From an uncultured Rikenellaceae bacterium (GTDB taxonomy: Bacteria; Bacteroidota; Bacteroidia; Bacteroidales; VadinHA17): a DNA stretch of 64,000 bases. The notes under the pieces were generated by a model. The model made no database searches, was not told the DNA's origin, and was given only the letters and a program-made list of their open reading frames with translations. The DNA lies in contig CAYXSM010000009.1 in assembly GCA_964466705.1 (NCBI GenBank), positions 44,308 to 108,307 on the forward strand. The letters are read 5' to 3'. This document shows positions 27,520 through 49,314 of the stretch, one piece after another. Both the position numbers and the translations under genes were made by a program. The number at the start of each line of letters is the position of its first letter. Position 1 is the stretch's first letter.

Positions 27520-27618
27520 AATGTATGGGTTTAGATTTTAAGTAAGCTGATCGTAAGTTAAGTCTCGGTTACAAAAATGGCTCAAAGTTACCTTTATGGT
27601 ACGTTGGGATTCTTTAGA

Positions 27619-32643: not shown

Positions 32644-32663
32644 GCCTTCAGGGCAAAAGCATA

Positions 32664-33698: not shown

Positions 33699-33760
33699 CG
33701 TGTCCTGTTTTATATTGTATTTGAACAAATATAATTATTAAGGATGATATTCACATCTGT

Positions 33761-35089
33761 TCAGTTACGGGGCCTGTCATATCTGCCTGGTATAAAGGGG
33801 AATTTTTTCGCTGCGTCATCTATCATTTCGACCCCGAATCCTGGTTTATCAGGCAATTCGATATAACCGTTCACGGGAACCAGCGGTTCTTTGAACAATT
33901 CTGTCCGCAAAGGATTGAAGGTCTGGTTTGACTCAAGCATTACCAGGTTGGGAATGCCTGCCGCAAGGGTGGCGTTGGAAACTGTAAGCAGTGCCCCGTG
34001 CCAGTTATGAGGAGCACATAATTGTCCCTGCAGATGGGCCATCCGTGATACATACCATGCTTCAGTGAGACCCATGACCCCTGCATCCGGCTGGACAATA
34101 TCCATGGCGTTACGGTCGATCCATTCCTTGTAATGGAACCGGTTGTCCATCACATCTCCGCCGTAGGAGAGCTTCACGTCTCTCAGGTTGTCCTTGATTT
34201 TCCTGTAATTATCCCTTGCCTGAGGCCCGAGGCGCTCGACAGGGTCCTCAATCCAGATCAGCTTCATCTTTTCAGCCTCAGGAATAAACTGCATTGTCTG
34301 TTCCATATTCCACTGTGCGTTGCACTCCTGGATCAACCCGAAGTCAGTGCCGACAGCTTCCCTTATTTTCCACACCCCGTCAATATATTTTGTCATTGTC
34401 ATTCCACTGACTGACCAGTGGGTTCCCGGCCTGAATTTGTAAGCCCCGAATCCTTTTTGCTTAAGTTCAAGGGCCTCACTGATAAGATTATCGGGCCAGA
34501 TATCACCGTCATACATTTCTCCGGCACTGGCATATACAGGGATTTTTGTCGCAGGTTTATGATCAACCGCCAGAAATTCATAAACAGGCCTGCCTTTTAC
34601 TTTCCCTATAATGTCCCAGAGGGCAGAGTCAACTCCTGCCCACCCAACCATCGGCCCCCTTACTCTTACCCCGCATGTAAGAAACTCTATGTCAAAAGGA
34701 TTCTTTCCTTTTATGGCAGGTCGTATTACTTCTTCAAGGTATTGTTTTACGACGTCCGGGCCCCCATATTGCGTGGCTCCTCCTATACCTGTAATTCCTT
34801 TGTCGGTGAATATTTCCACCAGTATGCTGTCTGTTTTCCAGGCCTTGTACCTCTCAGGGATCCAGTCCAGGTACCATTGCTCCTCTGGTGGCAGTTCATA
34901 TGAAAGCAAAGTAACTTTAAGATCAGTTATTCTGATATTTTCCCTTTCGACACCATCCAGAGGATGATTTCTTGATTTTTCTGACAACCCTGATCCTGTA
35001 TCTGTTCCGCAGGCAGAAAGTCCGGCTGCAGTGCCCAGGCCTGCAAGTGTACCGGTACTTATGAATTTTCGTCTCGACAGTGATTTCAT
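33761..35089 (-). CDS. Enolase-superfamily protein with Tat signal and lipobox
   Basis: 442 aa. N-terminus MKSLSRRKFISTGTLAGLGTAAGLSAC. GITGIGGATQ, LIQECNAQWN and IWIEDPV are MR_MLE-type barrel motifs. Confidence 0.85.
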   Translation of the reverse strand: MKSLSRRKFISTGTLAGLGTAAGLSACGTDTGSGLSEKSRNHPLDGVERENIRITDLKVTLLSYELPPEEQWYLDWIPERYKAWKTDSILVEIFTDKGITGIGGATQYGGPDVVKQYLEEVIRPAIKGKNPFDIEFLTCGVRVRGPMVGWAGVDSALWDIIGKVKGRPVYEFLAVDHKPATKIPVYASAGEMYDGDIWPDNLISEALELKQKGFGAYKFRPGTHWSVSGMTMTKYIDGVWKIREAVGTDFGLIQECNAQWNMEQTMQFIPEAEKMKLIWIEDPVERLGPQARDNYRKIKDNLRDVKLSYGGDVMDNRFHYKEWIDRNAMDIVQPDAGVMGLTEAWYVSRMAHLQGQLCAPHNWHGALLTVSNATLAAGIPNLVMLESNQTFNPLRTELFKEPLVPVNGYIELPDKPGFGVEMIDDAAKKFPFIPGRYDRPRN

Positions 35090-35970: not shown

Positions 35971-36897
35971 ATGAGAAAAATATATGCAATCGGCGAAACA
36001 GTATTCGACATAATCTTTAAAAATGACCAGCCCCGGGCCGCAAAGCCTGGGGGCGCAATGCTTAACAGTGCTGTGTCACTGGGCAGAATAGGATTGCCTG
36101 TCTCATTTATAAGTGAATACGGTGATGACAATGTCGGAAGCCTTATCGACAGATTTCTGAATGACAATGGTGTGAATACGTCGCACATCGATCACTTTAC
36201 CGAAGGAAAAACAGGCTTGGCTCTCGCCTTCCTTGATGAAAAGAATGATGCAAGCTATACTTTCTATAAAAATTATCCGGACAGGAGGCTTGAGATCCAA
36301 TTTCCCGATATTTTAAAGGACGACCTGATATTATGCGGCTCCATTTATGCGATAACCCCTGATATCAGGACAAAGTTCAGGTCTTTTACGGAAAAATCGG
36401 CCACGAACGGGGCAATAGTTGTTTATGATCCCAATTTCCGCAAGGCGCATTCTTCGGACCTGGAGAAGCTGTTGCCCCTGATGATCGAAAACATGCAGGT
36501 TGCTTCGATAGTCAGAGGATCGGATGAGGATTTCAGGAATATCTGCGGAGCCGCTACACCCGATGAAGCCTGGGCATTTGTTAGTAAATTCTCCGGCTGC
36601 CTGGTATATACTGCCAGCTCCGAAGGTGTTTATGTGAGGACCGTAAACTTCAGCGGAAAATTCCCGGTCAGACAGATAGATCCTGTCAGTACGATAGGGG
36701 CCGGGGATAATTTTAACGCCGGCATGATAGCTGCAATTTATCTTAATGGAATATCCGCAGAACAGATCGATAAGATGGGAGAGGAAAAATGGTCGAAGGT
36801 TATTTTCATGGGGGTGGATTTTGCAACCGACGTTTGCATGAGCTATGAGAATTATGTTTCAGCAGAGTTTGCCGCCGGAATGAGAGCGAACAATTAA
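35971..36897 (+). CDS. PfkB-family carbohydrate kinase (fructokinase-like)
   Basis: 308 aa. IGETVFDIIF, PGGAMLNSAVSLGRIG and the C-terminal TIGAGDNFNAGMI signature. Confidence 0.85.
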   Translation: MRKIYAIGETVFDIIFKNDQPRAAKPGGAMLNSAVSLGRIGLPVSFISEYGDDNVGSLIDRFLNDNGVNTSHIDHFTEGKTGLALAFLDEKNDASYTFYKNYPDRRLEIQFPDILKDDLILCGSIYAITPDIRTKFRSFTEKSATNGAIVVYDPNFRKAHSSDLEKLLPLMIENMQVASIVRGSDEDFRNICGAATPDEAWAFVSKFSGCLVYTASSEGVYVRTVNFSGKFPVRQIDPVSTIGAGDNFNAGMIAAIYLNGISAEQIDKMGEEKWSKVIFMGVDFATDVCMSYENYVSAEFAAGMRANN

Positions 36898-37031: not shown

Positions 37032-38294
37032 TCATATCGGCATTGCATTGGCAAGAAGATATTTTTCCGCTTCCATGTTCCAGATGTAGTCATTCTTTTC
37101 AACTATCTCATTCAGATCAGCGTAGAACGGATCATCTTTCCCTTTTTCCTTTAACCCGTGCAGAGAAGTCAGGGGCATTGATATATTTGTATATATCAGC
37201 TTTTTACCACCTGGGATATGCGGCAGGTTGAGCGTGGTCTCAATCACAGAGTCAAGTCCGCCGATATGTGTAACCATTACCGCAGGATTTATTTTATTTT
37301 CAGCCATCAACCTGAGCGACTCGCGCATATCATCTGTATTTCCTCCCGAGGTTCCCATAACATGAGTGAAACCGTAATGAACATTATAAAAATTCAGTTC
37401 GGCATGAAACCCGGGATCTGTAGGTCCTGCGAAGAAGTTCAGGCATCCGTCAAAGCCCAGAATGGCATCACCCTGTTCCACAACCTGCCGGACCGGGGCA
37501 AAAACAAACACATCGTCAAAACCTGTTCCCCCGCTCAGCTCACGAAGGTGGCGAACCGGTTCCTTTACTTTTCCGGTGTTGACATAAACCAGTTTAACGC
37601 CTTCTTTCTCTGCCTGTTCCGGAGTGAATATACACGCAGCCCTGGCAAGCCTGCTGTCATCTATATCGGTAACGACAAGCAAAGAGGGCCTGCGTGACTG
37701 ATGAAGGGCATAGTCTATGGCTCCGAGGCCCATCGGGCCCACCCCGGCAAGGAGAGCCATTTTCCCTCCTTTTCTGATCCCCATATCGTGTTTGTATGTC
37801 CCGGGAGGTACATGATAGCTGGCGTTGAACGCTCCGATTATACATGACATGGGCTCTGACAGGGAGGCCGGGAAAAATGCTTCTCCCTCGTATGGAAGCA
37901 GACAGTCAGCTTCCATGACAATGTCAGGTATAATGATCAAGGTGGCGTTTCCTCCCGTAAACCTGTAGGAGTAACCTGGGGCATCCAGCGTACCGGTGTG
38001 AGCCATGGCCGGTTGTATGGAGAACTTCTGTCCCGGGCTGAATTTGTGTTTCCATTTCTTTCCCACATCGAGCAGCACCCCGGCAAATTCGTGTCCTATA
38101 ATGGTGGGATTTATGTTTACATCATCAGGGACCCTTTTATGATCTGCTCCCTGCAATGCAGCCTTGTGTGATGACATGCATATGCTGTCGGAGACGACCC
38201 TGGCCAGAATCTCATCTTCCCCGATCCCGGGCAGTTCAAACTCTTCAAGCCGAAGGTCCTTTTTGCCGTATAATCTGACTGCTTTTGTTTTCAT
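37032..38294 (-). CDS. MDR Zn-dehydrogenase, about 420-aa type resembling ketose-1-phosphate (sorbose-1-P) reductases
   Basis: 420 aa. VVSDSICMSSHKAALQGADHKRVP, IGHEFAG and the Rossmann LAGVGPMGLG. The subfamily guess rests on my recollection of the N-terminal pattern only. Confidence 0.7.
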   Translation of the reverse strand: MKTKAVRLYGKKDLRLEEFELPGIGEDEILARVVSDSICMSSHKAALQGADHKRVPDDVNINPTIIGHEFAGVLLDVGKKWKHKFSPGQKFSIQPAMAHTGTLDAPGYSYRFTGGNATLIIIPDIVMEADCLLPYEGEAFFPASLSEPMSCIIGAFNASYHVPPGTYKHDMGIRKGGKMALLAGVGPMGLGAIDYALHQSRRPSLLVVTDIDDSRLARAACIFTPEQAEKEGVKLVYVNTGKVKEPVRHLRELSGGTGFDDVFVFAPVRQVVEQGDAILGFDGCLNFFAGPTDPGFHAELNFYNVHYGFTHVMGTSGGNTDDMRESLRLMAENKINPAVMVTHIGGLDSVIETTLNLPHIPGGKKLIYTNISMPLTSLHGLKEKGKDDPFYADLNEIVEKNDYIWNMEAEKYLLANAMPI

Positions 38295-38362
38295 GTTTCT
38301 TCATCAATAGCATCATCATCAATTTGTAAATCCTGTATTTATGACATTACATTACTGTGAGA

Positions 38363-40336
38363 TCAGCCCAACATAACCTGTCCCCCTGTCACAGGCACTG
38401 CCTGCCCGGTCTCATATTCCTGATCAATTATGTAAAGAATTGCCTTAAAAACATCTTCAAGCCTGCACCCGCGTTTCATCGGAACCTGGTCCTCGTAAAA
38501 CTTTCTGACATCATCAATGGTTTTTGCCCCGGGGACCTTGCCGGCTTTAAGGTATTGAATGAATAGGCCGTTTGCCGGATCCGACCATAAGGGGCCTTCA
38601 TAAAAATTTCCCGGACAAACTGAATTCACCTTTATCCTGTGCGGTGCCAGTTCGAGCGCAAATGACTGGGTAAGACCTATGCCCCCGAACTTGGACCCGG
38701 CATATGCAAAATTCCTGTTTGAGCCCCTGAGACCCGATTTTGAATTGATCTGGATAATATCGGTATAATAATTTTCTCTTTCCTGGTTCTGCAACCTCAT
38801 TATCTCTGAAGCATATTTTGCACAATGAAAGTAGCCGTTGTAATTAACGCCGGTGGTTGAAGCAAAAACTGCAGGATCCATTTCGTCGAGACCACCTGCC
38901 CTGAGCACTCCTGCATTGCTTATCAAAATGTCGAGTCCTCCGAAATGACCTGTAGCGGTATTTACCAGTTCCCTGACCGATTCCGGATCTGATACGTCAG
39001 CTTTTATGAAAACAGCTTTATTTGCTGTTTTCTTTTCATTAAGTCTGTCAGCCAGATCGTTTCCTTCCTTCTCGTTAAGATCAGCAATAACAACATTTGC
39101 AGAATGGTTGAAGAGATGTTCCGCTATGCCGGCGCCAAACCCTCTTGCTCCTCCTGTGACTATTGCTATTCTGCCGGAGATCTTACTCCGGTCCTTAACC
39201 GACAACGCTACTTCCCTTCTGTAGTTTTCAACTTCCCATTTATCTATGAAATCAGACTGTTCTCTTGTGAGGAATCTGGGACCACCACATTCTGCAGTAT
39301 AATGCCTGATCCTGATGAGATCTTCATAAATGTCAAGGACCGCGTCAGCCGCTGTTACAGAATTTTCAGCCGAGATTATGCCGACGTCCCTGACAACAAT
39401 TACTTTTGGCATATAACCATGTTCGGCGATAAAACGGGGAAGCTGTTGCCTGAACGACTCAAGGATTTTATGTGGTGTTTCCGATTGCTCTATGTAAAGG
39501 TAGCGGGATTTGCAGTATACAATAATATCAGGAGTAAGGGGCAGGGATATTTTGTGAAATTCCTGCCGGCTTTTATAATATTCGGCAATAAGGGTATTAT
39601 GCCTGAACCTGAGAACTTTTACCCGTTCCTCCGAAAGCATCATTCTCATCACAGGCAATATTCCGGCAATTTCAGGATCAGATGGGAGCTGTTTAATTTC
39701 AGGAATGCTCTGAACTCTTTCTCCGGAAAGGGAAATAATTGCCCTGTAAGTTTCCCTGACCTCCTCTGTGGTGTCAGCGCTGACGAATACACCGTGGTTT
39801 TCAAGAAAAATGATCCCGGGATCATGCATGTGTTTCTCACGAAATCTGATGATCTCTTTCTCAAGGCTTTTAAAAAGCGTATATCCCGGATCGGTGTAAG
39901 GCACAAATAAAGCTTTCTCCCCAAAAAGTTCGTATGTCAGCTGTTTTGCATGTCTGCTGCAAAGTATCCCGTTGATTACAGCCGGATGTAAGTGTACTAC
40001 AAAACTGTAACGTATGATCTCATGCAATGATGTCTCGACAGACGGGCGTTTTTTACCTTCAGGATCAATTATGCTGCTCATCAGGTCGATCCTGACCTGG
40101 TCTTCCCTTATTACAGGGTCGTCCGAATAAGTTCTCTCGGCAATGACCCGCAATCTTTCCCTGTCAAGGGCAACAAGTCCGGTTTCATCAAGGGTGGCAA
40201 GCGGATATCCGCTTGCCTTGATCCAGATTGTTTTGTCATCCTTATATGAGGTATTTCCTCCCCCGGCTATGACATAGTCCCTGTTTGTGCCGTAATATCG
40301 TGATATTTCAATAAGTTCACCGATTTCCTTTTTCAT
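38363..40336 (-). CDS. Bifunctional class II aldolase/short-chain dehydrogenase (RhaEW/YuxG-like)
   Basis: 657 aa. The N-terminal half has an aldolase_II-like fold (VIAGGGNTSYK, HLHP). The C-terminal SDR has IAIVTGGARGFGAGIA and YAGSKFG (YxxxK). Confidence 0.88.
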   Translation of the reverse strand: MKKEIGELIEISRYYGTNRDYVIAGGGNTSYKDDKTIWIKASGYPLATLDETGLVALDRERLRVIAERTYSDDPVIREDQVRIDLMSSIIDPEGKKRPSVETSLHEIIRYSFVVHLHPAVINGILCSRHAKQLTYELFGEKALFVPYTDPGYTLFKSLEKEIIRFREKHMHDPGIIFLENHGVFVSADTTEEVRETYRAIISLSGERVQSIPEIKQLPSDPEIAGILPVMRMMLSEERVKVLRFRHNTLIAEYYKSRQEFHKISLPLTPDIIVYCKSRYLYIEQSETPHKILESFRQQLPRFIAEHGYMPKVIVVRDVGIISAENSVTAADAVLDIYEDLIRIRHYTAECGGPRFLTREQSDFIDKWEVENYRREVALSVKDRSKISGRIAIVTGGARGFGAGIAEHLFNHSANVVIADLNEKEGNDLADRLNEKKTANKAVFIKADVSDPESVRELVNTATGHFGGLDILISNAGVLRAGGLDEMDPAVFASTTGVNYNGYFHCAKYASEIMRLQNQERENYYTDIIQINSKSGLRGSNRNFAYAGSKFGGIGLTQSFALELAPHRIKVNSVCPGNFYEGPLWSDPANGLFIQYLKAGKVPGAKTIDDVRKFYEDQVPMKRGCRLEDVFKAILYIIDQEYETGQAVPVTGGQVMLG

Positions 40337-41576
40337 CGTATGTTTTGTTGTTTAAGAAGTATTCGATGACCATCTTACCCAGGTATGCAAGTTCTTTTTT
40401 CTGAACAGCACTTGGGTCCCCGTTTGGCAGAACATATCCCTGTCTCCCGTTTGCCCTCAGATATTGATGAGCCGCAATAACACAAATTCCTTCCCAGGAA
40501 ACTGCCTTTAGATCATTATCAAGAGGCCTTCCTCCTCTTGATGCCACTGTTAGTGGAAGCATTTCAGGCGTGTTGTGCTCTGTTCCGAAAGTAATCACAT
40601 AATTCTTTGAATAAAAAAATTCAACAAATTCCCTGAGTATATTGTGATCATTCCGTCCCGGGATCAGTTCGATACAGCCGACTTTCATTGCTGAAAGTGA
40701 ATGATGCAGCTGTTCCGGATCTTTTTCAAATTCAGTATAATTACCTGCCGGATCATCCAGAAGAACAGGATAACAGGGAATGCCGCCCGCGCTGATTATT
40801 ATCTTTATGATTTGCTCCAGGGGCAGGAATGAGTCTTCATTTTCTTCAACGAAAGCAGCACCTCCCTTTTTGAGGAGGTTTGACCGGATTTCATTTTCAA
40901 GGGCAGAAGGGTCAGAAAGACCGGCTGCTGATTTTTTACCGCCATACAGTGATTCGATAAAATGTAACTGTTTTTCCGGTTCCCTGAGCTTTTCAGATGC
41001 AAGGACCCTTATGGCTTTGGCCAGATGCCTTTCCCGGACGAGCTCGTTTGCATAACTTCTCTTTATACTTTCGTATGTGAATGAAAAACCATCTCCGTAA
41101 GGTACCATAAGGTTGTTAAGCAATTTAATCATTTCCCTTATCTGGAACTGGCTTTCTTTTTTTATTCTGTTAAGCTTCAGTTTGTTCAAAAGCCCCGGGG
41201 AGAATGGAAAATCCAATCCCTTTCCGCTGAAATAGATCCGTCCCGGATTATTGGGGTCATTTATTCTGATTCCATCTTTCTGCTTCTCTTTGACCAGTCC
41301 GATGAATTCGATATTGAAAACAGGAAAGACTTTGCTTTTCAATGCTTTCTCGTAAAAGGGCCTGTAGCCGTCTGTAACGAAGAAATCATTTATTCCCAGT
41401 GCGGCGATCTGTTCATTGCCTGCCGCAGTAAAGACAGAATCGAGATCGGGGAATGCACTAAACGAGAATGGCGTGTGTATATGTCCATTCACTTCCCTGA
41501 ATTCAGGCAGGGGGTTATCCTTTAGTTTGCGGATAAGTATATCTGGCTCAGGAAAATTTCGAAGGAAATAGGTCAT
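40317..41576 (-). CDS. Hypothetical protein, possibly a PHP-like metal-dependent phosphoesterase
   Basis: 419 aa. The N-terminal NGHIHTPFSFSAF...ALGINDF and C-terminal FGTEHNT resemble the first and last metal motifs of PHP or amidohydrolase-like folds. Weak assignment. The stop overlaps the downstream start by 20 nt. Confidence 0.4.
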   Translation of the reverse strand: MTYFLRNFPEPDILIRKLKDNPLPEFREVNGHIHTPFSFSAFPDLDSVFTAAGNEQIAALGINDFFVTDGYRPFYEKALKSKVFPVFNIEFIGLVKEKQKDGIRINDPNNPGRIYFSGKGLDFPFSPGLLNKLKLNRIKKESQFQIREMIKLLNNLMVPYGDGFSFTYESIKRSYANELVRERHLAKAIRVLASEKLREPEKQLHFIESLYGGKKSAAGLSDPSALENEIRSNLLKKGGAAFVEENEDSFLPLEQIIKIIISAGGIPCYPVLLDDPAGNYTEFEKDPEQLHHSLSAMKVGCIELIPGRNDHNILREFVEFFYSKNYVITFGTEHNTPEMLPLTVASRGGRPLDNDLKAVSWEGICVIAAHQYLRANGRQGYVLPNGDPSAVQKKELAYLGKMVIEYFLNNKTYDEKGNR

Positions 41577-41649
41577 GTATTTATTGTTGTTTCTACATAT
41601 TTATTAATAGGGACATTGGCACCAGGCCGGAAGCTTTGCTTTATTATGC

Positions 41650-42300
41650 TTATGTCCTGAATAATCTGTTCAACTCGGAGACCTGCGATCCTGTTAGGGG
41701 CTTTTTTTTACCGGCCAGTCCTGTAATAAAAGTCATCCTCGCAGCATTTTCAACGACCTCAAGCCGGTCGAACGCCTGAAGCAATGATTTTCCCACAGCC
41801 AGAACCCCATGGTTCTCGAGCAGAAGTATTTCTGATTTAAGAATGCTTTCTGCTGCAAGATGTGCAAGTTCTTTCGTTCCCATAAGTGCATAGGGTACAA
41901 GTACGGGGTCACCGCAAATGGCTTTTGCTTCAGCTGTAAGATCAGTGTCAATCGTGAGGTTCATGGCTGTAAATGCTGATGCAAAGACAGGATGGGCATG
42001 AACAATTGCCCTGATATCAGTTTTTTTTCTGTATATCAGAAGATGCATCCCTGATTCAATTGATGGTTTAAGTTCAGGAGTGAGATTTTCTCCTGAGATG
42101 CTCATCAATCCCACCTCTCTCCAGCGCATCGTTCCCTTGTCGGTTGCAGAGGGAGTGATTGCTATTACATTATCAGAGACTCTGTGGCTGATGTTTCCTC
42201 CTGAAGTAGTTGTCAGTCCCTGATTGTAGAGACGCCGCATGAATCTTGCAACCTCCTTTCGTTCTTCTTTATATTCAAGATAATCAGGTTTTTCCATCAT
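41650..42300 (-). CDS. Class II aldolase/adducin-family protein (fuculose-1-P aldolase / ribulose-5-P epimerase-like)
   Basis: 216 aa. TTSGGNISHR, AIVHAHP and LLENHGVLAVG are canonical aldolase_II motifs. Confidence 0.88.
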   Translation of the reverse strand: MMEKPDYLEYKEERKEVARFMRRLYNQGLTTTSGGNISHRVSDNVIAITPSATDKGTMRWREVGLMSISGENLTPELKPSIESGMHLLIYRKKTDIRAIVHAHPVFASAFTAMNLTIDTDLTAEAKAICGDPVLVPYALMGTKELAHLAAESILKSEILLLENHGVLAVGKSLLQAFDRLEVVENAARMTFITGLAGKKKPLTGSQVSELNRLFRT

Positions 42301-43082
42301 TGAATAAGATTTATTACACCATCGAGGACATAATGGGGTTTGTAAGGAAAGTTATCGATTTCAGCTTTATTTGTGATTCCGCTGAGCACGAGCAGCGTAT
42401 CAATTTCTGATTCAAGTCCGCAGCGCACATCCGTATCCATCCTGTCTCCGATGACTATTGCCTCTTCTCTTTTTACTCCCAGCTTTTTCAGGGCGATACG
42501 CATCATAAGAGGATTGGGTTTTCCTACAAAATAAGCTTTTTTCCCGGAGGCAATCTCTATGGGTGCTATCAGGGCCTTGGTTGAAGGAGCGACACCATTT
42601 TCAACCGGGCCGCTGACATCCGGATTGGTTCCTATCAGCCTGGCACCGCGCAGGACAAGATTAACCGCCATCTGGATATTTTCAAAATTATAACCATGGG
42701 TATCGCCTACAACAACATAATCGGGATTTACATTATTTATGGAATATCCTATGCTGTACAACGCATGTATCAATCCGGCATCGCCAATTATATAAGCGCT
42801 TCCGTTTGGTTTCTGACTTGCAAGAAATCCTGCCGTGGCAAGTGCACTCGTATAAAAATGATCTTCTCCAACCTCAATCCCCAGCCTTTTTAATTTTTCA
42901 TGAAGCTCCCTGGGAGTTCTTTCGCTGGAATTGGTCAGGAAGAGGTACTTTTTACCAGACTCCTCCAGCCATCGCAGAAAGTCATTGACGCCAGGCAAAA
43001 GCTTGTTCCCATGATAAATAACACCATCCATGTCAATGATGAAACCTGACTTACCCCTTATCTTTTCAATTATATCTTCCAT
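42297..43082 (-). CDS. HAD-IIA (NagD-like) sugar-phosphate phosphatase
   Basis: 261 aa. IIDMDGVIYHG (DxD nucleophile motif), FLTNSS and GDRMDTD. ATGA overlap with the downstream aldolase gene. Confidence 0.85.
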   Translation of the reverse strand: MEDIIEKIRGKSGFIIDMDGVIYHGNKLLPGVNDFLRWLEESGKKYLFLTNSSERTPRELHEKLKRLGIEVGEDHFYTSALATAGFLASQKPNGSAYIIGDAGLIHALYSIGYSINNVNPDYVVVGDTHGYNFENIQMAVNLVLRGARLIGTNPDVSGPVENGVAPSTKALIAPIEIASGKKAYFVGKPNPLMMRIALKKLGVKREEAIVIGDRMDTDVRCGLESEIDTLLVLSGITNKAEIDNFPYKPHYVLDGVINLIQ

Positions 43083-43160
43083 AGTGTTCCTGTATGCTGT
43101 AAAGATACCAAATGGGCCTGTAAAATACCTTTGCCCGTCCGGTTAATTTGAGAAAGAAAG

Positions 43161-45629
43161 TTATACTCCTTTTTTATTCAGATTTATAAGCTTTTCATCA
43201 GAAAAGTCAAGTACGGGTACATGACCCTCAAGCGGAATTATTTTCTGATGAATGGCATCAATAATCCATTCGGGCTGCGGGAAGAAAAACTGTTCCATCT
43301 CGTATGCTGGAGTGATCCAGTTCCTGGATCCGACTACAACAGGAGGCGCATCCAGTACATCGAATGCCAGTTCGGTAATTGTATGGGCAACTTCTTTCAG
43401 AAAAGATCCCCGGGATGATGCGTCACTGGCAAGAACTATCCTGCCTGTCTTTTTTAATGATTCGATAACCGGCAGGTAGTTAAACGGAACAAGGGTTCTG
43501 GCATCAATTATCTCGGCCTTCAGGCCGTATTTCTTATCCAGAATATCTGCTGCCTTCATCACTGTATAAAGGGTTGCCCCTATTGAAATAATCGTGATAT
43601 CGCTTCCGGGTAGCTTAATATCTGGTTCACCGATGGGAATTTCGTAATATCCTTCAGGGACACCGGGCGTATGGAACATCTCTCCGACATCATAGATACG
43701 CTGACTTTCAAAGAATATTACCGGGTCTGTTCCCTGCAACGCACTGTTCATTAAACCTTTAGCATCATATGGGGTGGCCGGGAAAACTACTTTCAAACCG
43801 GGAATATGAGCCACCAGCGAAGACCAGTCCTGTGAATGCTGGGCTCCGTATTTTGACCCTACAGACACTCTTATAACCACAGGCATTTTTATAATATTTC
43901 CGCTCATTGCCTGCCATTTTGGAAGCTGATTAAATACTTCGTCACCTGAACGCCCCAGAAAATCACAGTACATTATTTCGGCAATAACCCTTCCGCCGCA
44001 CATGCCATAGCCGATGGCTGTGCCTGCTATTGCACCTTCGGATATGGGTGCATTGAAGAGCCTGTGGTAGGGGATCGCTTCTGTAAGACCCCGGTAAACT
44101 GCGAAAGCGCCTCCCCAGTCACGGTTTTCTTCCCCCCACGCCGCCAGAGTAGGGTCTTTATAGAATCTGTCAATCACCGCTTCAAAGATGCCATCCCTGA
44201 GCTGGTAAAGCTTTACTTTTGAGACCAGCTTGCCGTCTGTATCCTTATAAAAACGTTCCTTGTTTTTCAGAGATTTGACGCGCGGATTATCTGAAAAAGG
44301 TATCAGTGTCTCAGGTTCTCCTGAACCCATGCTGTCTGCGGATCCGTTGGAAAACATCATCTGGCCTATCAAATCATGGTCTTTCGTAAGATCCAGATGA
44401 GGAGACACTTTGTCATCAGTGCTTAGTTCCAGTATGTGTGTTATCAGATCGGCACACTCGTGCTTAATCACATCGAGAAGTTCCTTTCCTGCAACACCTT
44501 CTGCAACAAGGTCTTTCCCATACGACTCTATGGAATCCTCATTTATCCAGGCTTCCAGTTCTTCCTTTGATCTGTAAGAAGATGCGTCGGAAGGTGAATG
44601 GCCACTGATTCTGTAGGTCAGAGTATCCAGAAGGACAGGGCCTCTTTTCTCTTCAATGATCTTCCTCTTACGACGGAATGCGTCGATCACGGCAAGCGGA
44701 TTATATCCGTCAATTCTTTCAGCATGCATCATTTCAGGATTCACACCGGCCCCGACCCGGGCAAGTATACCATAACCCATGGTTTCACCGGTGGTTTGTC
44801 CGCCCATGCCGTACTGATTGTTCATGAAATTGAAAATGAGGGGAAGTCCGCCGTTATATTCACCTTCCCACAATGTATGATACTGGTCCATCGTGGCAAA
44901 TGCAATGCCCTCCCACACCGGTCCACATCCCATTGATGCATCACCTATATTGCAGACCACCATGCCTGATTTTTTGTTTATCTTCTTGTATAATGCGGCA
45001 CCTACGGAAATATCGCCTGAGCCTCCGACGATTGCATTATTCGGATATATACCGAACGGAGTAAAAAATGCATGCATGGAACCTCCAAGACCCTTGTTGA
45101 ATCCGTTCTCCCGTGCAAAGATCTCTGCAAGCGCACCATACAGCAGGAAATGTATTCCCAGCTCCCTGATTGTTCCGCGGAAATCTTTCTCAACCACTCT
45201 CAGGGCAGAGCCTCCGAAATATGTGCTCATGATTGTGTAGAGGGAATCCTCGTCAAGCTTCCTTATGGCTGACAGACCTTTTGCCAGGATCTCACCGTGA
45301 CTTCTGTGAGAGCCAAAAATATAATCATCACAGTCAAGGGTGAAAGCCATACCGACTGCTGCAGCTTCCTGACCTATCGACAGATGTGCGGGACCGGGAT
45401 GATTGTATCTTATGCCCCGGTACTCATTGGTCGTTTTTATAAGGTTAAGCATTGATTCGAATTCACGTACCAGAACCATATCATGGTAGATGCTGATGAA
45501 TTCTTCAACGGTAAAATTTCCTTTCTCCTCACCTATGGATCTGTTGTACTGGTTTACAGGGATCGTTCCAAATTCCAGGAAGCCTGATCTCCTTACAATT
45601 TTTGGATCAATATTTTGACTTTTAGGCAT
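43161..45629 (-). CDS. Fused E1 alpha/beta component of a TPP-dependent 2-oxoacid (or acetoin-type) dehydrogenase
   Basis: 822 aa. The N-terminal half has VREFE...GPAHLSIGQEAAAVG and the TPP-binding GDASMGCG...NN. The C-terminal half is transketolase-like (EGAIAGTAIGYGMCGGR) with a C-terminal E1-beta domain. Confidence 0.88.
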   Translation of the reverse strand: MPKSQNIDPKIVRRSGFLEFGTIPVNQYNRSIGEEKGNFTVEEFISIYHDMVLVREFESMLNLIKTTNEYRGIRYNHPGPAHLSIGQEAAAVGMAFTLDCDDYIFGSHRSHGEILAKGLSAIRKLDEDSLYTIMSTYFGGSALRVVEKDFRGTIRELGIHFLLYGALAEIFARENGFNKGLGGSMHAFFTPFGIYPNNAIVGGSGDISVGAALYKKINKKSGMVVCNIGDASMGCGPVWEGIAFATMDQYHTLWEGEYNGGLPLIFNFMNNQYGMGGQTTGETMGYGILARVGAGVNPEMMHAERIDGYNPLAVIDAFRRKRKIIEEKRGPVLLDTLTYRISGHSPSDASSYRSKEELEAWINEDSIESYGKDLVAEGVAGKELLDVIKHECADLITHILELSTDDKVSPHLDLTKDHDLIGQMMFSNGSADSMGSGEPETLIPFSDNPRVKSLKNKERFYKDTDGKLVSKVKLYQLRDGIFEAVIDRFYKDPTLAAWGEENRDWGGAFAVYRGLTEAIPYHRLFNAPISEGAIAGTAIGYGMCGGRVIAEIMYCDFLGRSGDEVFNQLPKWQAMSGNIIKMPVVIRVSVGSKYGAQHSQDWSSLVAHIPGLKVVFPATPYDAKGLMNSALQGTDPVIFFESQRIYDVGEMFHTPGVPEGYYEIPIGEPDIKLPGSDITIISIGATLYTVMKAADILDKKYGLKAEIIDARTLVPFNYLPVIESLKKTGRIVLASDASSRGSFLKEVAHTITELAFDVLDAPPVVVGSRNWITPAYEMEQFFFPQPEWIIDAIHQKIIPLEGHVPVLDFSDEKLINLNKKGV

Positions 45630-45665
45630 ATACTGTATTGTTTTTAATTATCTCTGCTTTTATTT

Positions 45666-46895
45666 TTAGTAGCTGAACGTCTCAATCTCATTTTTGATCT
45701 CTCTCAGAAACAATGTTGCAGGGCCGCCGTCAACAGCCCTGTGGTCATACGTCAGAGATAATCCGATATATGGCACAAAACCCATGATGTTGTTCCCGAG
45801 ATCAGCAGGCCGGTTCGTTATCGTACATACTCCAAGGATGGCAGTCTGGGGGAGATTTATCACAGGCGTGAACATTTCCACTCCGTAATTGCCAAGGTTT
45901 GATACAGTGAAAGACGCTGAAGTACTCTTCAGAAGCTCAGGATTTATATTGCCTTTTCTGGATGCTGCCGCTGCATCCCTCAATTCCCCTGAAAGCATTT
46001 CCAGGCTCATCCTGTCAGCGTTTTTTACCACAGGAACCATTAGTCCCCTGGCTGTATCGACAGCAGATCCCAGGTTAACACCTTTGAAGATCCTGATCCT
46101 GTCATCCAGATAATGACTGTTGAGAGCAGGGTGCTTTTTCAGTGCCTGAACAACACACCAGCATATTATGTCGTTTAACGTAATATCCTGATTCAGTGAC
46201 TTTTTTATGATATTGTCCTTGATTTTGCGTCTGGCATCAAGGATTTTTCTGGCATCAGCACTCAAATGATGGGTAAGCTGGGCTGAATTCATGAGAGATG
46301 CATGCATGGCGGTGGCAATGAGCCTTCTTATATTTGATACGGGCTGGTCAGAATATTGTTCTGCTTCTGCTTTTGTTTCCTTACTGCCGGACGATAATGC
46401 CAATGCAGACATAACATCCCGGTAAACGATTCTTCCCTGAGGGCCTGATCCGGTTATGCCTGAATAATCCAGCCCCTTTGCTTCCGCAAGCTTTCTGGCC
46501 CTGGGAGATACCCTTGTCTTTCCATGCCGGCTCACCGGCTTCGCAGCTCTCTCCTCAAAAGGGGAAGCCGGCATGCCCTCGCCGGTATCACTGGCCCCGG
46601 CAGGTATCCCTGATGGAGGCGGGACGACAGGCTGGCTGATAAAGGTTGCTTCCTCCCCTTCCTTTCCCAGGAAGGCAACATTGGATAAAACAGGCACTTC
46701 ATCTCCTTCATTGTAAAGTATTTCCAGGAGAATTCCATCGGCCGGTGATTCAAAATCAAACGTCGCTTTGTCAGTCTCATAGGAAAAAAGGACATCCCCT
46801 TCTTTTATCGAATCTCCTTTCTTCCTGAACCATCTGGTTATGATACAGGTCTCTACCGACTGACCCTGTCTGGGCATTATTAACGGGGTTGACAT
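45666..46895 (-). CDS. Dihydrolipoamide acyltransferase (E2) component
   Basis: 409 aa. Lipoyl domain with SYETDKATFDFESP, subunit-binding domain SPRARKLAEAKGLDYSGITGSGPQGRI, and catalytic domain ending LSLTYDHRAVDGG. Confidence 0.9.
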   Translation of the reverse strand: MSTPLIMPRQGQSVETCIITRWFRKKGDSIKEGDVLFSYETDKATFDFESPADGILLEILYNEGDEVPVLSNVAFLGKEGEEATFISQPVVPPPSGIPAGASDTGEGMPASPFEERAAKPVSRHGKTRVSPRARKLAEAKGLDYSGITGSGPQGRIVYRDVMSALALSSGSKETKAEAEQYSDQPVSNIRRLIATAMHASLMNSAQLTHHLSADARKILDARRKIKDNIIKKSLNQDITLNDIICWCVVQALKKHPALNSHYLDDRIRIFKGVNLGSAVDTARGLMVPVVKNADRMSLEMLSGELRDAAAASRKGNINPELLKSTSASFTVSNLGNYGVEMFTPVINLPQTAILGVCTITNRPADLGNNIMGFVPYIGLSLTYDHRAVDGGPATLFLREIKNEIETFSY

Positions 46896-46968
46896 ATGAT
46901 TCTCAGATTAATGGTTTGTATTTTGTTTGCTGCGATCAGATATTTGATGTTTCATTCCGTTAGGACGA

Positions 46969-46998
46969 CTTGTTAATATAAGTGAGTATAATAACAAG
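46969..46998. promoter_or_regulatory. Imperfect inverted repeat CTTGTTAaTAT-N8-ATAaTAACAAG (operator or leader hairpin candidate)
   Basis: Arms of 11 bp with one mismatch, in the 205-bp divergent region between the E2 gene and the GntR gene. It shares the CTTGT half-site with the palindrome at 47052. Confidence 0.4.
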
Positions 46999-47034: not shown

Positions 47035-47042
47035 CAAAAATA
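47035..47042 (-). promoter_or_regulatory. Candidate -7 box (TATTTTTG on minus strand) for the E2-led operon
   Basis: CAAAAATA on the plus strand, about 140 nt upstream of the E2 ATG (46895). The 47052 palindrome would sit over the -33 region. Confidence 0.3.
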
Positions 47043-47051
47043 ATGCAATCA

Positions 47052-47067
47052 ACTTGTATTTACAAGT
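47052..47067. promoter_or_regulatory. Perfect palindrome ACTTGTA-TT-TACAAGT, candidate GntR/HutC operator
   Basis: Arms of 7 bp. The core TTGTATTTACAA fits the generic GntR-family GT-N(x)-AC pattern. It lies 34 nt upstream of the GntR start codon. Confidence 0.45.
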
Positions 47068-47100: not shown

Positions 47101-47817
47101 ATGGTATCCGGCAGATCTTTGCCACAGTACAGGAAACTTTACGGGATCCTCCGTAAGCACATAACAGACGGCATATACGGTGAGGGGGATTTACTGCCTT
47201 CGGAGAATGAACTTTGTCAGCTTTACGGGATGACTCGTCCGACTGTGCGGCAGGCATTGAGCGTTCTGGCAAATGACGGGTACATAAAAAAGTATCAGGG
47301 GAAAGGAAGCCTCGTGCATACACTTCCAAGGGAGATCGGCATTTTATCAGTTTCCGGAACTACGACGGCTGTCGGCAACAGGAAACTCAAGACTGTAATA
47401 ATTGTAAAACCTGTTTTGAGACCATGGCCGGATGAATTCATGTTTCCCTTAACGGATCTGGAGAAAGAGTCGGGCTGTGTTTATATGGAAAGGCTCAGGC
47501 TTCTGGAAAATGATCCGATATTTTATGACATCAGCTACCTTCCAAATATTAATCTTCCGAGGATTACGGCAAGGAAATTTGAGGACAGGTCGCTTTTCAG
47601 GATTTTGCGTGAACACTATCGTATTGAGATCAAGGGAGGGGAGCAGAGAATCAGGGCAGTGCAGGCATCCCTGGAGGTGAGCAAGCTTCTCAGGCTTTCG
47701 AAAGGACAGGCTGTCCTTCATCTCGAGAGAAAAATAGAAACAAGTGTTAACGGCCTCTTTTTGTATTCATCTATTTACTGCAATACAGGAAAATATTCCA
47801 TATTTGGCAGATTCTGA
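47101..47817 (+). CDS. GntR-family transcriptional regulator, HutC subfamily (UTRA effector domain)
   Basis: 238 aa. Winged-helix LPSENELCQLYGMTRPTVRQALSVLANDGYI, with a UTRA-like C-terminal half. Confidence 0.9.
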   Translation: MVSGRSLPQYRKLYGILRKHITDGIYGEGDLLPSENELCQLYGMTRPTVRQALSVLANDGYIKKYQGKGSLVHTLPREIGILSVSGTTTAVGNRKLKTVIIVKPVLRPWPDEFMFPLTDLEKESGCVYMERLRLLENDPIFYDISYLPNINLPRITARKFEDRSLFRILREHYRIEIKGGEQRIRAVQASLEVSKLLRLSKGQAVLHLERKIETSVNGLFLYSSIYCNTGKYSIFGRF

Positions 47818-47936: not shown

Positions 47937-49262
47937 ATGAAAGATCAAAAGAATCTATGGTCAAGGCGCCGTTTCCTCGGTTCGGCAGCTGCAGGAATGG
48001 CAGGAATGGTTGTTGTTCCGCATATTATAACTTCCTGCAAAAGCGCACCTGATTCAGACATTAAGCTTGGATTTATAGGCCTGGGCCGCCAGGCTATGTT
48101 CCTTCTCAATGGTTTCATGCAGATCCCCGGTGTAGTGGCAGTTGCCGGATGTGATGTGTATGCCGTGAAACGTACCCGGTTTGAAAGAAGGGTGAACAGG
48201 TTTTATGCCGAAGCAGGGAAAAAGGTCAGGGTTGAAACATACGAAAGATTTCAGGATCTTCTGGCACGCCCGGATATTGACGCAGTAGTGATTGCGGTTC
48301 CTGATCATTACCATGCGATCATTGCGATTGCTGCCTGCAATGCAGGCAAGGATGTATACCTTGAAAAACCAATGACTCTGACCATTAAAGAGGGGCAGGA
48401 GCTGAAAAAAGCTGTCCGCAACAATAACCGAATACTTGGCATTGGGAGCCAGCAGCGTTCAGACCCGAATTTCCAGCATGCAGTCAATCTGGTCCGGACA
48501 GGGGCACTTGGTAAAATCAGTCTGGTAAATGCATACGTCGGAGCACCGCCTGTACCTTATGATCTTCCGGAGGAACCGATTCCTGAAGGTCTTAACTGGG
48601 ATTTATGGCTTGGCCCGCTACCCGGAGATATTCATTTCAACAATGAGCTCAATCCTCCTATTTCGCTTGATCCGGAGCAGGACGAGCAATTCTGGGGAGG
48701 ATGGCGCTGGTATAAGGAAATGGGCGGAGGTTTCACTACCGACTGGGGCGCTCACATGTTTGATATAGCCCAGTGGGGACTTGGGATGGACAATAGTGGT
48801 CCGGTCGAAATCTCACCCATCGGAGATGGAACAGAATTTATAACATTTAAATATGCAAACGGTGTCATCATGACCTCGGAGCCGTTTGACGAAAAGCTTA
48901 CCAAAGGTGTTAAATTCCTGGGTGACGCAGGGTGGATAGAGGTATCACGTGAGTCGTACAATGCTTCTGATCCCGGATTTCTCCCTCCGCCTTCAGCAGC
49001 GACTGATGAAGATATACCCTATGAAACAAAGATCCCTCATCAGGTTAATTTCATTGAAGCAGTGAAATCAAGGCAGGATCCCGTTGTGCCTGTGGAAATA
49101 GGGCACAGCAGCTGTACGGTTTGTACGCTTGGAAATATCGCCTGCGATCTGCTTCGGACAATTAACTGGGATCCGTTAACTGAAACTTTTATCGATGATG
49201 TTGACGGGGCAGCAACGAAAAAGTTGCACTATGAATATCGCAGTCCCTGGAAACTTGTGTAA
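47937..49262 (+). CDS. Gfo/Idh/MocA-family oxidoreductase with Tat signal and lipobox
   Basis: 441 aa. WSRRRFLGSAAAGMAGMVVVPHIITSC, the Rossmann LGFIGLGRQA and the EKP motif (VYLEKPM). Confidence 0.88.
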   Translation: MKDQKNLWSRRRFLGSAAAGMAGMVVVPHIITSCKSAPDSDIKLGFIGLGRQAMFLLNGFMQIPGVVAVAGCDVYAVKRTRFERRVNRFYAEAGKKVRVETYERFQDLLARPDIDAVVIAVPDHYHAIIAIAACNAGKDVYLEKPMTLTIKEGQELKKAVRNNNRILGIGSQQRSDPNFQHAVNLVRTGALGKISLVNAYVGAPPVPYDLPEEPIPEGLNWDLWLGPLPGDIHFNNELNPPISLDPEQDEQFWGGWRWYKEMGGGFTTDWGAHMFDIAQWGLGMDNSGPVEISPIGDGTEFITFKYANGVIMTSEPFDEKLTKGVKFLGDAGWIEVSRESYNASDPGFLPPPSAATDEDIPYETKIPHQVNFIEAVKSRQDPVVPVEIGHSSCTVCTLGNIACDLLRTINWDPLTETFIDDVDGAATKKLHYEYRSPWKLV

Positions 49263-49280: not shown

Positions 49281-49314
49281 AAAAGGAGGCTCTGTATACA
49301 AAGCCTCCTTTTGA
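49281..49314. terminator. Bidirectional intrinsic terminator between the convergent Gfo-family and csp genes
   Basis: AAAAGGAGGCT-ctgtataca-AGCCTCCTTTT: an 11-bp stem flanked by an A-run and a T-run, so it can serve both strands. Confidence 0.75.

Follow-up and report, generated by a model that had tools for sequence, protein, structure and literature searches.

An uncultured Rikenellaceae bacterium of the VadinHA17 lineage (Bacteroidales; NCBI GenBank assembly GCA_964466705.1) carries on contig CAYXSM010000009.1 a predicted seven-gene operon in which a fused E1 alpha/beta protein (E1ab) and an E2 acyltransferase, components of a lipoamide-dependent dehydrogenase complex, are encoded together with two class II aldolases and several accessory enzymes. 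We analysed the 64,000 nucleotides around it (positions 44,308 to 108,307 of the contig, forward strand; hereafter the window, in whose numbering coordinates are given), taking up a preliminary description that a model had made of this DNA. The window sequence occurs only in DNA runs of sludge metagenomes. A check of the open reading frames (ORFs) returned the same seven minus-strand ORFs at 37032-46895, with identical coordinates and identical inter-gene gaps (36, 78, -4, 73, -20 and 68 nt, E2 side first), and domain calls made at Pfam gathering scores and NCBIfam curated equivalog cutoffs agreed with the domain content given there. The seven genes, the divergent regulator and the predicted control elements between them are as follows.

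45666-46895, minus strand: E2 dihydrolipoyl acyltransferase, first operon gene, with lipoyl (PF00364), E3-binding or peripheral-subunit-binding (PF02817) and catalytic acyltransferase (PF00198) domains
43161-45629, minus strand: E1ab, fused E1 alpha/beta, 822 aa, thiamine diphosphate (ThDP)-dependent, member of a 'long' clade (Pfam E1_dh, Transket_pyr, Transketolase_C)
42297-43082, minus strand: HAD-IIA (NagD-family) phosphatase, accessory (Pfam, NCBIfam; E. coli NagD, 208 bits)
41650-42300, minus strand: AldII, class II aldolase, FucA-like, 216 aa (PF00596, 147 bits)
40317-41576, minus strand: PHP, predicted PHP-fold metal phosphoesterase with a large helical insert (AlphaFold2 model and Foldseek)
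38363-40336, minus strand: AldSDR, bifunctional class II aldolase/short-chain dehydrogenase (SDR), RhaEW-like, 657 aa (full-length match to TIGR02632, below cutoff)
37032-38294, minus strand: MDR420, zinc-dependent medium-chain dehydrogenase (Zn-MDR) of polyol-dehydrogenase type, 420 aa (Pfam, NCBIfam and PDB comparison)
47101-47817, plus strand: GntR/HutC-type regulator with winged helix-turn-helix (wHTH) and UTRA domains (Pfam), FucR-like by context
47052-47067, no strand: predicted operator O1, perfect palindrome ACTTGTATTTACAAGT, 34 nt upstream of the gntR start
46968-46983, no strand: predicted operator O2, ACTTGTTAATATAAGT, with one mismatch, presumably within the 5' leader of the E2 operon and at a distance of 84 bp from O1
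47035-47042, minus strand: candidate Bacteroidetes -7 element TATTTTTG, fitting TAnnTTTG, 9 nt downstream of O1 toward E2

The statement that the operon holds no internal terminators was borne out, since terminator-like sites between 35 and 50 kb are no more frequent than chance predicts (15, against an expectation of 14.3) and the only two on the minus strand within the operon are weak 5-bp stems in coding sequence. Profile and domain scans of the window found no E3, lipoate gene or second E1/E2 set; the lack of an E3, also noted in the preliminary description, holds for the window and fails for the family, as three relatives described below carry one.

Conservation of the operon in relatives

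Two samples of relatives were compared. The first, anchored on PHP, comprised 80 loci, one per species, all from metagenome-assembled genomes of uncultured Bacteroidales, Rikenellaceae or Bacteroidia, 48 of them with enough flank; the second, anchored on E1ab, comprised 80 loci with 79-83% identity on independent metagenome contigs. E1ab, AldSDR and MDR420 adjoin PHP in the order of the window in 46 of the 48 PHP-anchored loci. From the other anchor, E2 and the GntR gene lie upstream of E1ab in 46 of 46 loci and PHP lies downstream in 34 of 37, the other three continuing past a 5.4-kb insertion that encodes a resistance-nodulation-division (RND) pump. Because synteny is retained from both anchors and a dedicated predicted operator goes with it, chance adjacency is rejected: the linkage of E1/E2 to sugar-type genes is not accidental. 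The preliminary description had proposed this tie and had named non-conserved adjacency among the things that would refute it; the adjacency is kept, and one regulator and one operator serve both sets of genes. A housekeeping branched-chain 2-oxoacid dehydrogenase (BCKDH) was discarded as an explanation on the two-anchor synteny, the dedicated operator and the separate E1 clade.

Gene content varies around this core. The fullest operons read E2-E1ab-HAD(IIA)-AldII-HAD(IA)-AKR-PHP-AldSDR-MDR420, where AKR is an aldo-keto reductase. The minimal ones, from a distant clade with PHP at ~50% identity, are reduced to E2-E1ab-PHP-AldSDR-MDR420, lie among housekeeping genes, have no transporter or kinase and have no HAD-IIA. 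Two loci (L052, L054) have lost E1/E2, AldSDR and the regulator altogether, leaving HAD-(AldII)-AKR-PHP-MDR420, and a third (L066), also without E1/E2 and regulator, keeps a divergent aldolase/SDR fusion at 40% identity. E1/E2 largely travels with the RhaEW-like fusion and the GntR regulator, and PHP and MDR420 are the constant pair, retained even in the variants lacking E1/E2. In 26 of 132 loci a complete tripartite RND efflux system is inserted between E1ab and HAD, after which the operon resumes; it consists of an outer-membrane factor (~415 aa), an HlyD-type adaptor (~310 aa) and an AcrB-type pump (~1015 aa; L123:9895-15148, also L133 and L172). This insertion suggests a toxic substrate, intermediate or aglycone.

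Regulator and predicted operator pair

The divergent regulator had been called HutC-type, and it carries both domains that define GntR/HutC proteins (PF00392, 59 bits; UTRA, PF07702, 80 bits). A 16-bp palindrome, ACTTGTnnnnACAAGT, is common to the E2/gntR intergenic regions and is the predicted operator. In a scan of 1.36 Mb of related loci, 92 of 94 operator sites with at most one mismatch sit in the GntR|E2 intergenic region; two sites are present in 37 of 50 loci, at a spacing of 84-85 bp in 33, 86 bp in one and 96-97 bp in three. The pair and its spacing are kept across clades, even where PHP identity falls to ~50%; where E1/E2 is missing, so are the regulator and the operator. The same scan of related loci found no operator upstream of the genes for PfkB or MDR354, two frequent neighbours described below. 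Because the operator pair is conserved, paired and position-specific in the GntR|E2 region, the seven genes are read as one predicted repressor-controlled unit in which E2 and E1ab are promoter-proximal. The -7 motif TAnnTTTG is known from Bacteroides promoters; its candidate copy TATTTTTG is also kept in related intergenic regions and would be the -7 promoter element of the E2-led operon.

A clade of long fused E1 proteins

The E2 shows, on reading, the DKA motif of the lipoyl-lysine and the catalytic DHRxxDG motif (DHRAVDG), and E1ab, in which both the ThDP-binding alpha and the transketolase-like beta parts are present (PF00676, PF02779 and PF02780, all above gathering scores), has a readable GDxS...NN ThDP motif. 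The top NCBIfam matches of E1 alpha, E1 beta and E2 are each models of the pyruvate dehydrogenase (PDH) type and fall below cutoff; the PDH equivalog cutoffs were missed for E1 and E2 (TIGR03182, 180 bits against 394; NF006667, 221 against 321; TIGR01349, 244 against 445). Sources name E1ab '2-oxoisovalerate dehydrogenase E1', and the PDB comparisons do not favour BCKDH, the alpha subunit of which gives 52 bits against 79 for PDH alpha, with a mixed order among the beta subunits. As to acetoin systems, the E2 core is PF00198 and not the AcoC-type combination of lipoyl and alpha/beta-hydrolase domains, and NF011457 matches the lipoyl part only. Firmicutes AcoC proteins have ordinary E2 architecture, so the E2 type is compatible with an Aco-like function. 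A literature search for E1 active-site residues that separate 2-oxoacid from hydroxyketone substrates returned only the shared catalytic His, and the sequence data leave both a 2-oxoacid and an alpha-hydroxy-carbonyl as possible substrates of this E1.

A search of the 50%-clustered protein universe placed E1ab in a 'long' fused family (~790-850 aa) whose members align in one stretch (39-62% identity, 540-1187 bits), whereas the common fused E1 (~650-680 aa), ~150 aa shorter, aligns in three separate stretches (32-37% identity, 225-335 bits). In a neighbour-joining tree, built without named AcoA/B or BkdA/B references, the long clade stands apart from the common short fused E1 and the window E1ab is sister to Christensenella. 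E1ab therefore belongs to a distinct long clade and does not appear to group with the common short fused E1ab/BCKDH E1, in keeping with the earlier suspicion that it is no ordinary fused E1 of the Bacteroidota. It is the most conserved protein of the operon (79-83% identity across species), and its nearest relatives outside the phylum are in cultured Christensenella species, at 62% identity.

In three Bacteroidales operons (L067, L071, L080) an E3 lies between E2 and E1ab and passes its equivalog cutoff (TIGR01350, 478 bits against 409). Because these three keep E3 and the Christensenella cassette is homologous, a complete E2-E3-E1ab cassette probably joined the other genes, E3 being later dropped in most lineages. 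More distant members of the clade have other partners. At L084:10001-13593 the gene order is a long-clade E1ab (51% identity), an 86-aa free lipoyl-domain protein and a 259-aa alpha/beta-hydrolase, of which the last two would amount to an AcoC-type E2 split over two genes; other long-clade E1ab genes adjoin other hydrolases, and the nearest unfused beta subunit lies within a TRAP-SDR-E1a-E1b-E2 operon. We also observed an AMP-binding enzyme and a 77-aa carrier protein within a few kb of E2/E1ab in Christensenella and in the long-clade locus P0129 (L082:1404-3310, L086:5144-7073), which may be a recurring association.

Aldolases, PHP protein and dehydrogenases

The best NCBIfam and PDB matches of AldII are L-fuculose-phosphate aldolases, including B. 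thetaiotaomicron FucA (2opi); its Glu, HxH and H motifs are kept in an alignment made by eye, and it is the sole FucA candidate in loci that also hold FucK and FucI. We infer that AldII is an L-fuculose-1-phosphate aldolase, yielding dihydroxyacetone phosphate (DHAP) and L-lactaldehyde. AldSDR combines PF00596 with PF00106 and aligns over residues 6-653 to positions 2-670 of the 676 in TIGR02632, with the zinc-binding His motifs kept and, again by eye, a Glu where RhaE is reported with Asp. The closest structure to its SDR half is sorbitol-6-phosphate dehydrogenase 5o3z; this half also matches acetoin reductase/meso-butanediol dehydrogenase models and the acetoin reductase structure 1geg. AldSDR would thus be a ketose-1-phosphate aldolase joined to a lactaldehyde dehydrogenase.

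The PHP protein scores below threshold on Pfam (PF02811, 21.4 bits against a gathering score of 26.4). Its AlphaFold2 model, built on 40 homologs (pLDDT 84.5, pTM 0.86), was matched by Foldseek to RNase AM/TrpH, BAD_1165 and Cv1693 (E 4e-10 to 6e-9, TM ~0.7 on target), with a probability of 1.00 to four PHP enzymes. The predicted structure thus points to a PHP phosphoesterase fold, and the label 'PHP-like' given to the gene in the preliminary description stands despite the Pfam score. H32 and H34 of the HxH motif are invariant and further candidate metal ligands are present, but several canonical ones are not obviously kept. All of its >4664 homologs are named 'hypothetical'. MDR420 keeps the Cys/His-Glu zinc ligands, resembles polyol dehydrogenases weakly and is 73-82% identical within the main clade.

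Other pathways were considered for these enzymes and set aside. An inositol pathway was rejected, as matches to IolM, IolG and IolC are weak and far under cutoff and no other iol genes are present. A pentose-bisphosphate or nucleotide pathway, to which the NagD-like HAD, the nucleotide-type neighbours of PHP and the matches to ribulose-1-phosphate aldolase and ribose-1-phosphate kinase might have pointed, was dropped on the weakness of these matches; ribose-1,5-bisphosphate isomerase and nucleoside phosphorylase were absent from the loci examined for it.

Fucose and rhamnose genes beside related operons

Fucose and rhamnose catabolism both end in DHAP and L-lactaldehyde. In a census of the so far unidentified neighbour genes of all 160 loci, an L-fuculokinase gene stands directly behind gntR on the same strand in five loci (TIGR02628, 503 bits against a cutoff of 471; 42-44% identity to E. 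coli FucK), an L-fucose isomerase gene lies just past the operon end in four (1079 bits against 775; 62-65% identity to E. coli FucI), and a GH29 alpha-L-fucosidase gene is beside gntR in eight. The loci with fucose genes have the same perfect operator and an orthologous regulator (66-72% identity), and a typical layout is FucK< GntR< | E2> E1ab> AldII> PHP> AldSDR> MDR420> <PfkB MDR354> <FucI. One minimal operon (L073), whose only aldolase is the RhaEW-like one, lies beside genes for an L-rhamnose isomerase (51% identity to E. coli RhaA), a RhaT-type permease and an AraC regulator; the 525-aa gene that adjoins GntR there was considered as a rhamnulokinase and is a GH43. For the genome of the window, the predicted link to fucose rests on orthology of the operon and the regulator.

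These results bear on the substrate hypothesis of the preliminary description, which had E1/E2 working in the manner of acetoin dehydrogenase on a product derived from a deoxy-sugar. The deoxy-sugar origin gained support, with FucK and FucI past their cutoffs, fucose-gene or GH29 flanks in 14 related loci and RhaA/RhaT in one. The acetoin-dehydrogenase-like action was not established, the E2 being of the standard 2-oxoacid type and the best matches being PDH models. A sulfoquinovose pathway was also tried and rejected, as no GH31 sulfoquinovosidase turned up and the operator does not control the neighbouring sulfatase.

Neighbourhood of the operon in the window

Further features of the window that recur with the operon, or lie close to it, are these.

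47937-49262, plus strand: GFO, exported Gfo/Idh/MocA oxidoreductase with twin-arginine translocation (TAT) signal and lipobox, downstream of gntR
35971-36897, plus strand: PfkB sugar kinase, running convergently toward the end of the operon and conserved beside it in the main clade
32664-33728, minus strand: MDR354, Zn-MDR dehydrogenase, 354 aa, conserved neighbour, 31% identity to E. coli YdjJ
50760-52370, minus strand: TPP536, divergent acetolactate-synthase-family ThDP enzyme, 536 aa, all models below cutoff

The GFO sequence (MKDQKNLWSRRRFLGS...ITSC) shows a twin-arginine signal together with a lipoprotein cysteine, and the gene is frequent without being universal (32 of 46 E1ab-anchored loci); in several of the eight GH29 loci the fucosidase stands between GFO and GntR. 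Its closest solved relatives are glycoside/glucuronide 3-dehydrogenases and C-glycoside DgpA enzymes, which hints that GFO may oxidise a glycoside in the periplasm, upstream of the pathway. Directly after the GFO gene, a strong hairpin with a 14-bp stem and A and T runs on both sides (49281-49312) looks like a bidirectional terminator closing the gntR-GFO unit.

TPP536 recurs in the pattern Sulfatase< TPP> NYN> GFO< GntR< and, in L066, lies 2.7 kb upstream of HAD. We considered it there as an IolD- or Xsc-type replacement for E1/E2 and rejected this, as it is a divergent member of the acetolactate-synthase family and a separate neighbour, with the NYN gene between. Near it, a 151-aa ORF (50312-50767, plus strand) joins a ribosomal protein Thx motif in its first 26 residues to a Lys/Glu-rich tail of ~125 residues, a 188-aa Thx-like form being present in 13 related loci (e.g. 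L154:3664-4230), and between the GFO and Thx-like genes lies a small RRM-type RNA-binding protein with an Arg/Gly-rich tail (49553-49870, minus strand).

On the other side of the operon, a sugar-acid island (19046-35089) contains enolase-superfamily dehydratases at 20655-21905, 25069-26544 and 33761-35089, together with a UxuA-like protein, an RraA-like aldolase, two large DUF362 proteins and an SBF-family symporter; a PfkB resembling 2-keto-3-deoxygluconate (KDG) kinase (17968-19005), a lipoprotein distantly like GH88 and an unannotatable exported 548-aa protein also belong to it. Many relatives also have ENO2 and RraA next to the operon, and the island may represent a non-phosphorylative deoxy-sugar-acid route. 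In several relatives (L020, L028, L033, L072) a gene like inosine-uridine nucleoside hydrolases and a SASA-family carbohydrate esterase gene lie downstream of MDR354, ~13 kb past the E1ab start. Farther off in the window are a sugar/ureide-type permease, a 538-aa ADP-ribosylglycohydrolase-family protein and a ribokinase-like PfkB (12831-16575, minus strand), a DUF6807 protein at 9111-10460, a fragment of which resembles GH106 rhamnosidase, and an aconitase/isocitrate dehydrogenase/citrate synthase operon (3926-8820, plus strand) preceded by proB- and proA-like genes. This set of three enzymes is the oxidative TCA branch typical of anaerobes making 2-oxoglutarate.

A tentative route for 6-deoxyhexoses

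The reading we favour, though we hold it tentatively and at somewhat less than even confidence, is that the operon encodes the lower, aldolase-level part of 6-deoxyhexose catabolism in anaerobic Bacteroidales, for L-fucose and probably L-rhamnose, with E1/E2 oxidising pyruvate. Whichever C3 compound it acts on, the complex most likely serves to make an acyl-CoA from the three-carbon product of these sugars. Gene content, linkage, operator, the distinct E1 clade and the fucose context of relatives are observations; the catalytic steps, the E1 substrate and the effector are predictions. The FucR-like GntR/HutC protein would repress through the two palindromic operators in the divergent promoter region. 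The FucA-like AldII and the aldolase half of AldSDR would split fuculose-1-phosphate or rhamnulose-1-phosphate into DHAP and L-lactaldehyde, and in an oxidative branch the SDR half of the fusion would, like RhaW, oxidise L-lactaldehyde to L-lactate. RhaEW has been shown experimentally to turn rhamnulose-1-phosphate into DHAP and L-lactate, and some RhaEW regulons add lactate dehydrogenases, reaching pyruvate (PMC3870299). Here L-lactate might be converted to pyruvate by MDR420 or an unlinked lactate dehydrogenase, and the fused E1 alpha/beta with E2 and E3 would then turn the 2-oxoacid into acetyl-CoA and NADH, with a gain of ATP through acetate formation. E3 would come from within the operon in some relatives and be supplied in trans in this genome. 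Where the YdjG-like AKR is present, lactaldehyde might alternatively be reduced to 1,2-propanediol. Such an oxidative branch would explain why the fusion and E1/E2 disappear together, as they do in L052 and L054, where of the two branches only the AKR is left; it would also account for the standard architecture of E2, the PDH-like best matches and the stand-alone Christensenella cassette.

Several observations weigh against this proposal. Neither fucI, fucK nor a GH29 fucosidase gene is present in the 64-kb window, and most loci show the exported GFO in place of fucose genes. AldII misses the FucA cutoffs (NF005302, 124 bits against 264; TIGR01086, 64 against 400), AldSDR is no equivalog of TIGR02632 (253.6 bits against 567.75), and all E1/E2 matches to PDH models are well below theirs. 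No lactate dehydrogenase was identified in the proposed route, and because MDR420 is retained in variants without E1/E2 it is not simply the missing lactate step. Anaerobes normally oxidise pyruvate with pyruvate:ferredoxin oxidoreductase (PFOR) or pyruvate formate-lyase (PFL), which makes a sugar-induced PDH look redundant. Some long-clade E1ab genes (46-51% identity) adjoin AcoC-like lipoyl plus alpha/beta-hydrolase proteins, which points toward acetoin-type chemistry. Finally, five conserved genes (PHP, MDR420, HAD, PfkB and MDR354) are left without an assigned role, and PfkB and MDR354 are conserved even where FucK and FucI are present. Taken together with GFO and the RND pump, these genes suggest that the true substrates include more than plain L-fucose, such as modified or related deoxy sugars.

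The strongest challenge keeps the fucose/rhamnose context and changes the last step: E1/E2 would act like acetoin dehydrogenase on L-lactaldehyde or a derived hydroxyketone, giving an acyl-CoA such as lactoyl-CoA. We regard this as doubtful, but several points speak for it. Lipoamide complexes of strict anaerobes are classically acetoin-cleaving (Pelobacter, Clostridium magnum), and pyruvate in such organisms is usually oxidised by other enzymes; the PDH models are missed by wide margins, no lactate dehydrogenase would be needed, and the AcoC-like partners of long-clade relatives just mentioned fit it. A three-subunit acetoin-dehydrogenase-like enzyme of a Caldicellulosiruptor rhamnose regulon has moreover been predicted to consume L-lactaldehyde (PMC8579813). 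Yet the operon already encodes a RhaW-like domain whose co-variation with E1/E2 suggests steps that follow one another and do not compete, the E2 is of the standard 2-oxoacid type and not AcoC, and a Christensenella E1ab of 62% identity occurs in a context-free E2-E3-E1ab operon. We also know of no enzyme of this family for which an aldehyde has been shown to be the physiological donor, and the specific version in which E1ab/E2 takes L-lactaldehyde as ThDP donor, forming lactoyl-CoA oxidatively or propionyl-CoA by a phosphoketolase-like dehydration of dihydroxypropyl-ThDP, seems to us rather unlikely. Were it true, the propionyl-CoA option would entail no net redox change and E3 would be dispensable.

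Three further explanations carry less weight. If E1/E2 acted on a sugar-level carbonyl, by decarboxylating a 2-keto-3-deoxy-6-deoxy sugar acid or by moving the C2 unit of a ketose (phosphate) onto lipoamide, the surrounding sugar-acid island, with its three enolase-superfamily dehydratases, UxuA-like enzyme and RraA-like aldolase and with ENO2 and RraA recurring beside MDR354, would make sense, as would MDR420, MDR354, the SDR, the AKR, PHP and two HADs, which suggest more intact-sugar chemistry than a simple fucose pathway needs; E1-like/lipoyl-E2 systems do take the C2 unit of a ketose phosphate in quinocarcin and naphthyridinomycin biosynthesis. The dehydratases, however, are neither under the operator nor constant neighbours, the minimal operons lie among housekeeping genes without them, and we know of no precedent for a catabolic complex of this kind, so we think this quite improbable. 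We put as little trust in a general pyruvate or branched-chain 2-oxoacid dehydrogenase, E2-(E3)-E1ab, that merely shares a promoter with sugar genes and channels nothing. The homologous Christensenella cassette stands alone, E1ab carries a source annotation as a 2-oxoisovalerate dehydrogenase and is the most conserved gene of the operon, but E1/E2 is promoter-proximal under a sugar-type repressor whose operators persist over clades with PHP at ~50% identity, it is lost together with AldSDR and the regulator, and a housekeeping enzyme is not expected under a substrate-specific repressor in ~95% of sampled species. Least probable of all, and very unlikely in our view, is the breakdown of diols or hydroxyketones (2,3-butanediol, acetoin), in which the MDR and SDR would be two butanediol dehydrogenases of different stereospecificity and E1/E2 would be a true acetoin dehydrogenase. 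Butanediol dehydrogenases of both MDR and SDR type are known, the SDR half matches acetoin reductase/meso-butanediol dehydrogenase models and 1geg, and the minimal operons lack a transporter or kinase; the SDR, however, forms a fusion with an aldolase domain and is much closer to sorbitol-6-phosphate dehydrogenase, the regulator is not of the AcoR type, and the FucA-like aldolase, the phosphatases and the FucK/FucI/GH29 context would be left unexplained.

Comparison with known systems

Among characterised systems, the B. thetaiotaomicron fucose operon fucRIAKUP, under the GntR-family FucR (BT1272; PMC3878776), is a counterpart of the 6-deoxyhexose route that we favour. In both a GntR-family regulator heads the locus, AldII matches the class II FucA (BT1274, PDB 2opi), the products would be DHAP and L-lactaldehyde, and there are relatives with FucK and FucI beside the same regulator. 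Unlike it, the window has its regulator divergent from an E2-E1ab-led operon with PHP, the RhaEW-like fusion and MDR420, it lacks fucI, fucK, fucP and fucU, and the likeness to FucR is one of context and not of sequence comparison with BT1272. With RhaEW (B. subtilis YuxG, Chloroflexus Caur_2283) AldSDR shares the full-length two-domain architecture and the zinc His motifs, but it reaches only 253 bits of the 568 required, and no rha locus surrounds it except near L073 (rhaA, rhaT).

Caldicellulosiruptor Athe_0702-4, in the RhaR2 regulon, is similar in placing an E1/E2-type lipoamide complex within a 6-deoxyhexose regulon, with a proposed role in L-lactaldehyde disposal (PMC8579813). That case is a prediction only, for three separate subunits in a member of the Firmicutes with neither RhaW nor FucO (PMC8579813), and we found no follow-up of it in the literature; the operon described here differs in its fused E1, its phylum, its RhaW-like domain and the additional PHP and MDR. 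AcoABC(L) likewise comprises PDH-like E1 alpha/beta and a lipoyl E2 in anaerobes, and some long-clade relatives have AcoC-like partners, whereas the window has an E2 with an ordinary 2-oxoacid core, a GntR regulator in place of AcoR/sigma-54 and no acetoin genes. The E2-E3-E1ab cassette of Christensenella (C. minuta CP029256) has the same order, identities of 45% (E2), 47% (E3) and 62-63% (E1ab) and a long E1ab of 822/823 aa, but stands alone, without sugar genes, GntR or operator; we found no literature on this complex. The common short fused E1 alpha/beta (~650-680 aa), which with its E2 is usually annotated BCKDH, shares domain order and fusion with the window E1ab.

The E. coli ydj cluster (YdjG AKR, YdjH PfkB, YdjI aldolase, YdjJ/YdjL Zn-MDRs) offers a similar gene mix, the AKR of the fuller operons being closest to YdjG (229 bits, 34% identity) and MDR354 being 31% identical to YdjJ. 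However, PfkB is just 22% identical to YdjH, and ydj has neither E1/E2 nor PHP. YdjI is an FBA-type aldolase, not of the Aldolase_II fold. With identities of 22-34% and a different aldolase fold, orthology to the ydj cluster was rejected and the likeness is one of composition. The PHP protein shares its fold and HxH motif with TrpH/RNase AM, BAD_1165 and Cv1693 (a 3',5'-bisphosphonucleotide phosphatase), from which it differs in identity (12-15%), in a helical insert of ~130 residues and in its sugar-catabolism rather than nucleotide context.

Implications

Each component of the operon belongs to a known superfamily, and their combination is conserved in uncultured anaerobic Bacteroidales; homologs of its PHP marker number in the thousands and come from digesters, sediments and fens. 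We found no characterised member for the operon, for the long E1ab clade or for the PHP family, and a link between deoxy-sugars and an acetoin-dehydrogenase-like complex has been predicted once before, in another phylum (Caldicellulosiruptor). The operon would be a widespread version of the lipoamide-complex route predicted there, and it gives a first functional context to the long fused E1 clade, which includes the gut genus Christensenella, to the 'hypothetical' PHP family and to the 420-aa MDR.

Plant, algal, mucin and bacterial glycans are rich in fucose and rhamnose. The known fates of the lactaldehyde that these two sugars yield are reduction to 1,2-propanediol, oxidation by AldA or RhaW, and, after propanediol, the B12- or glycyl-radical-dependent microcompartment routes. 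How anaerobes handle this toxic aldehyde shapes whether they excrete propanediol, propionate, lactate or acetate, and the operon bears on how those without propanediol microcompartments deal with it. If E1 acts on pyruvate, as in the route that we favour, the operon would be a modest pathway variant. If it acts on lactaldehyde, anaerobic Bacteroidales would conserve energy from the lactaldehyde of fucose and rhamnose independently of B12 and microcompartments, PHP and MDR420 would be further new steps, and the 2-oxoacid dehydrogenase family would gain new enzymology.

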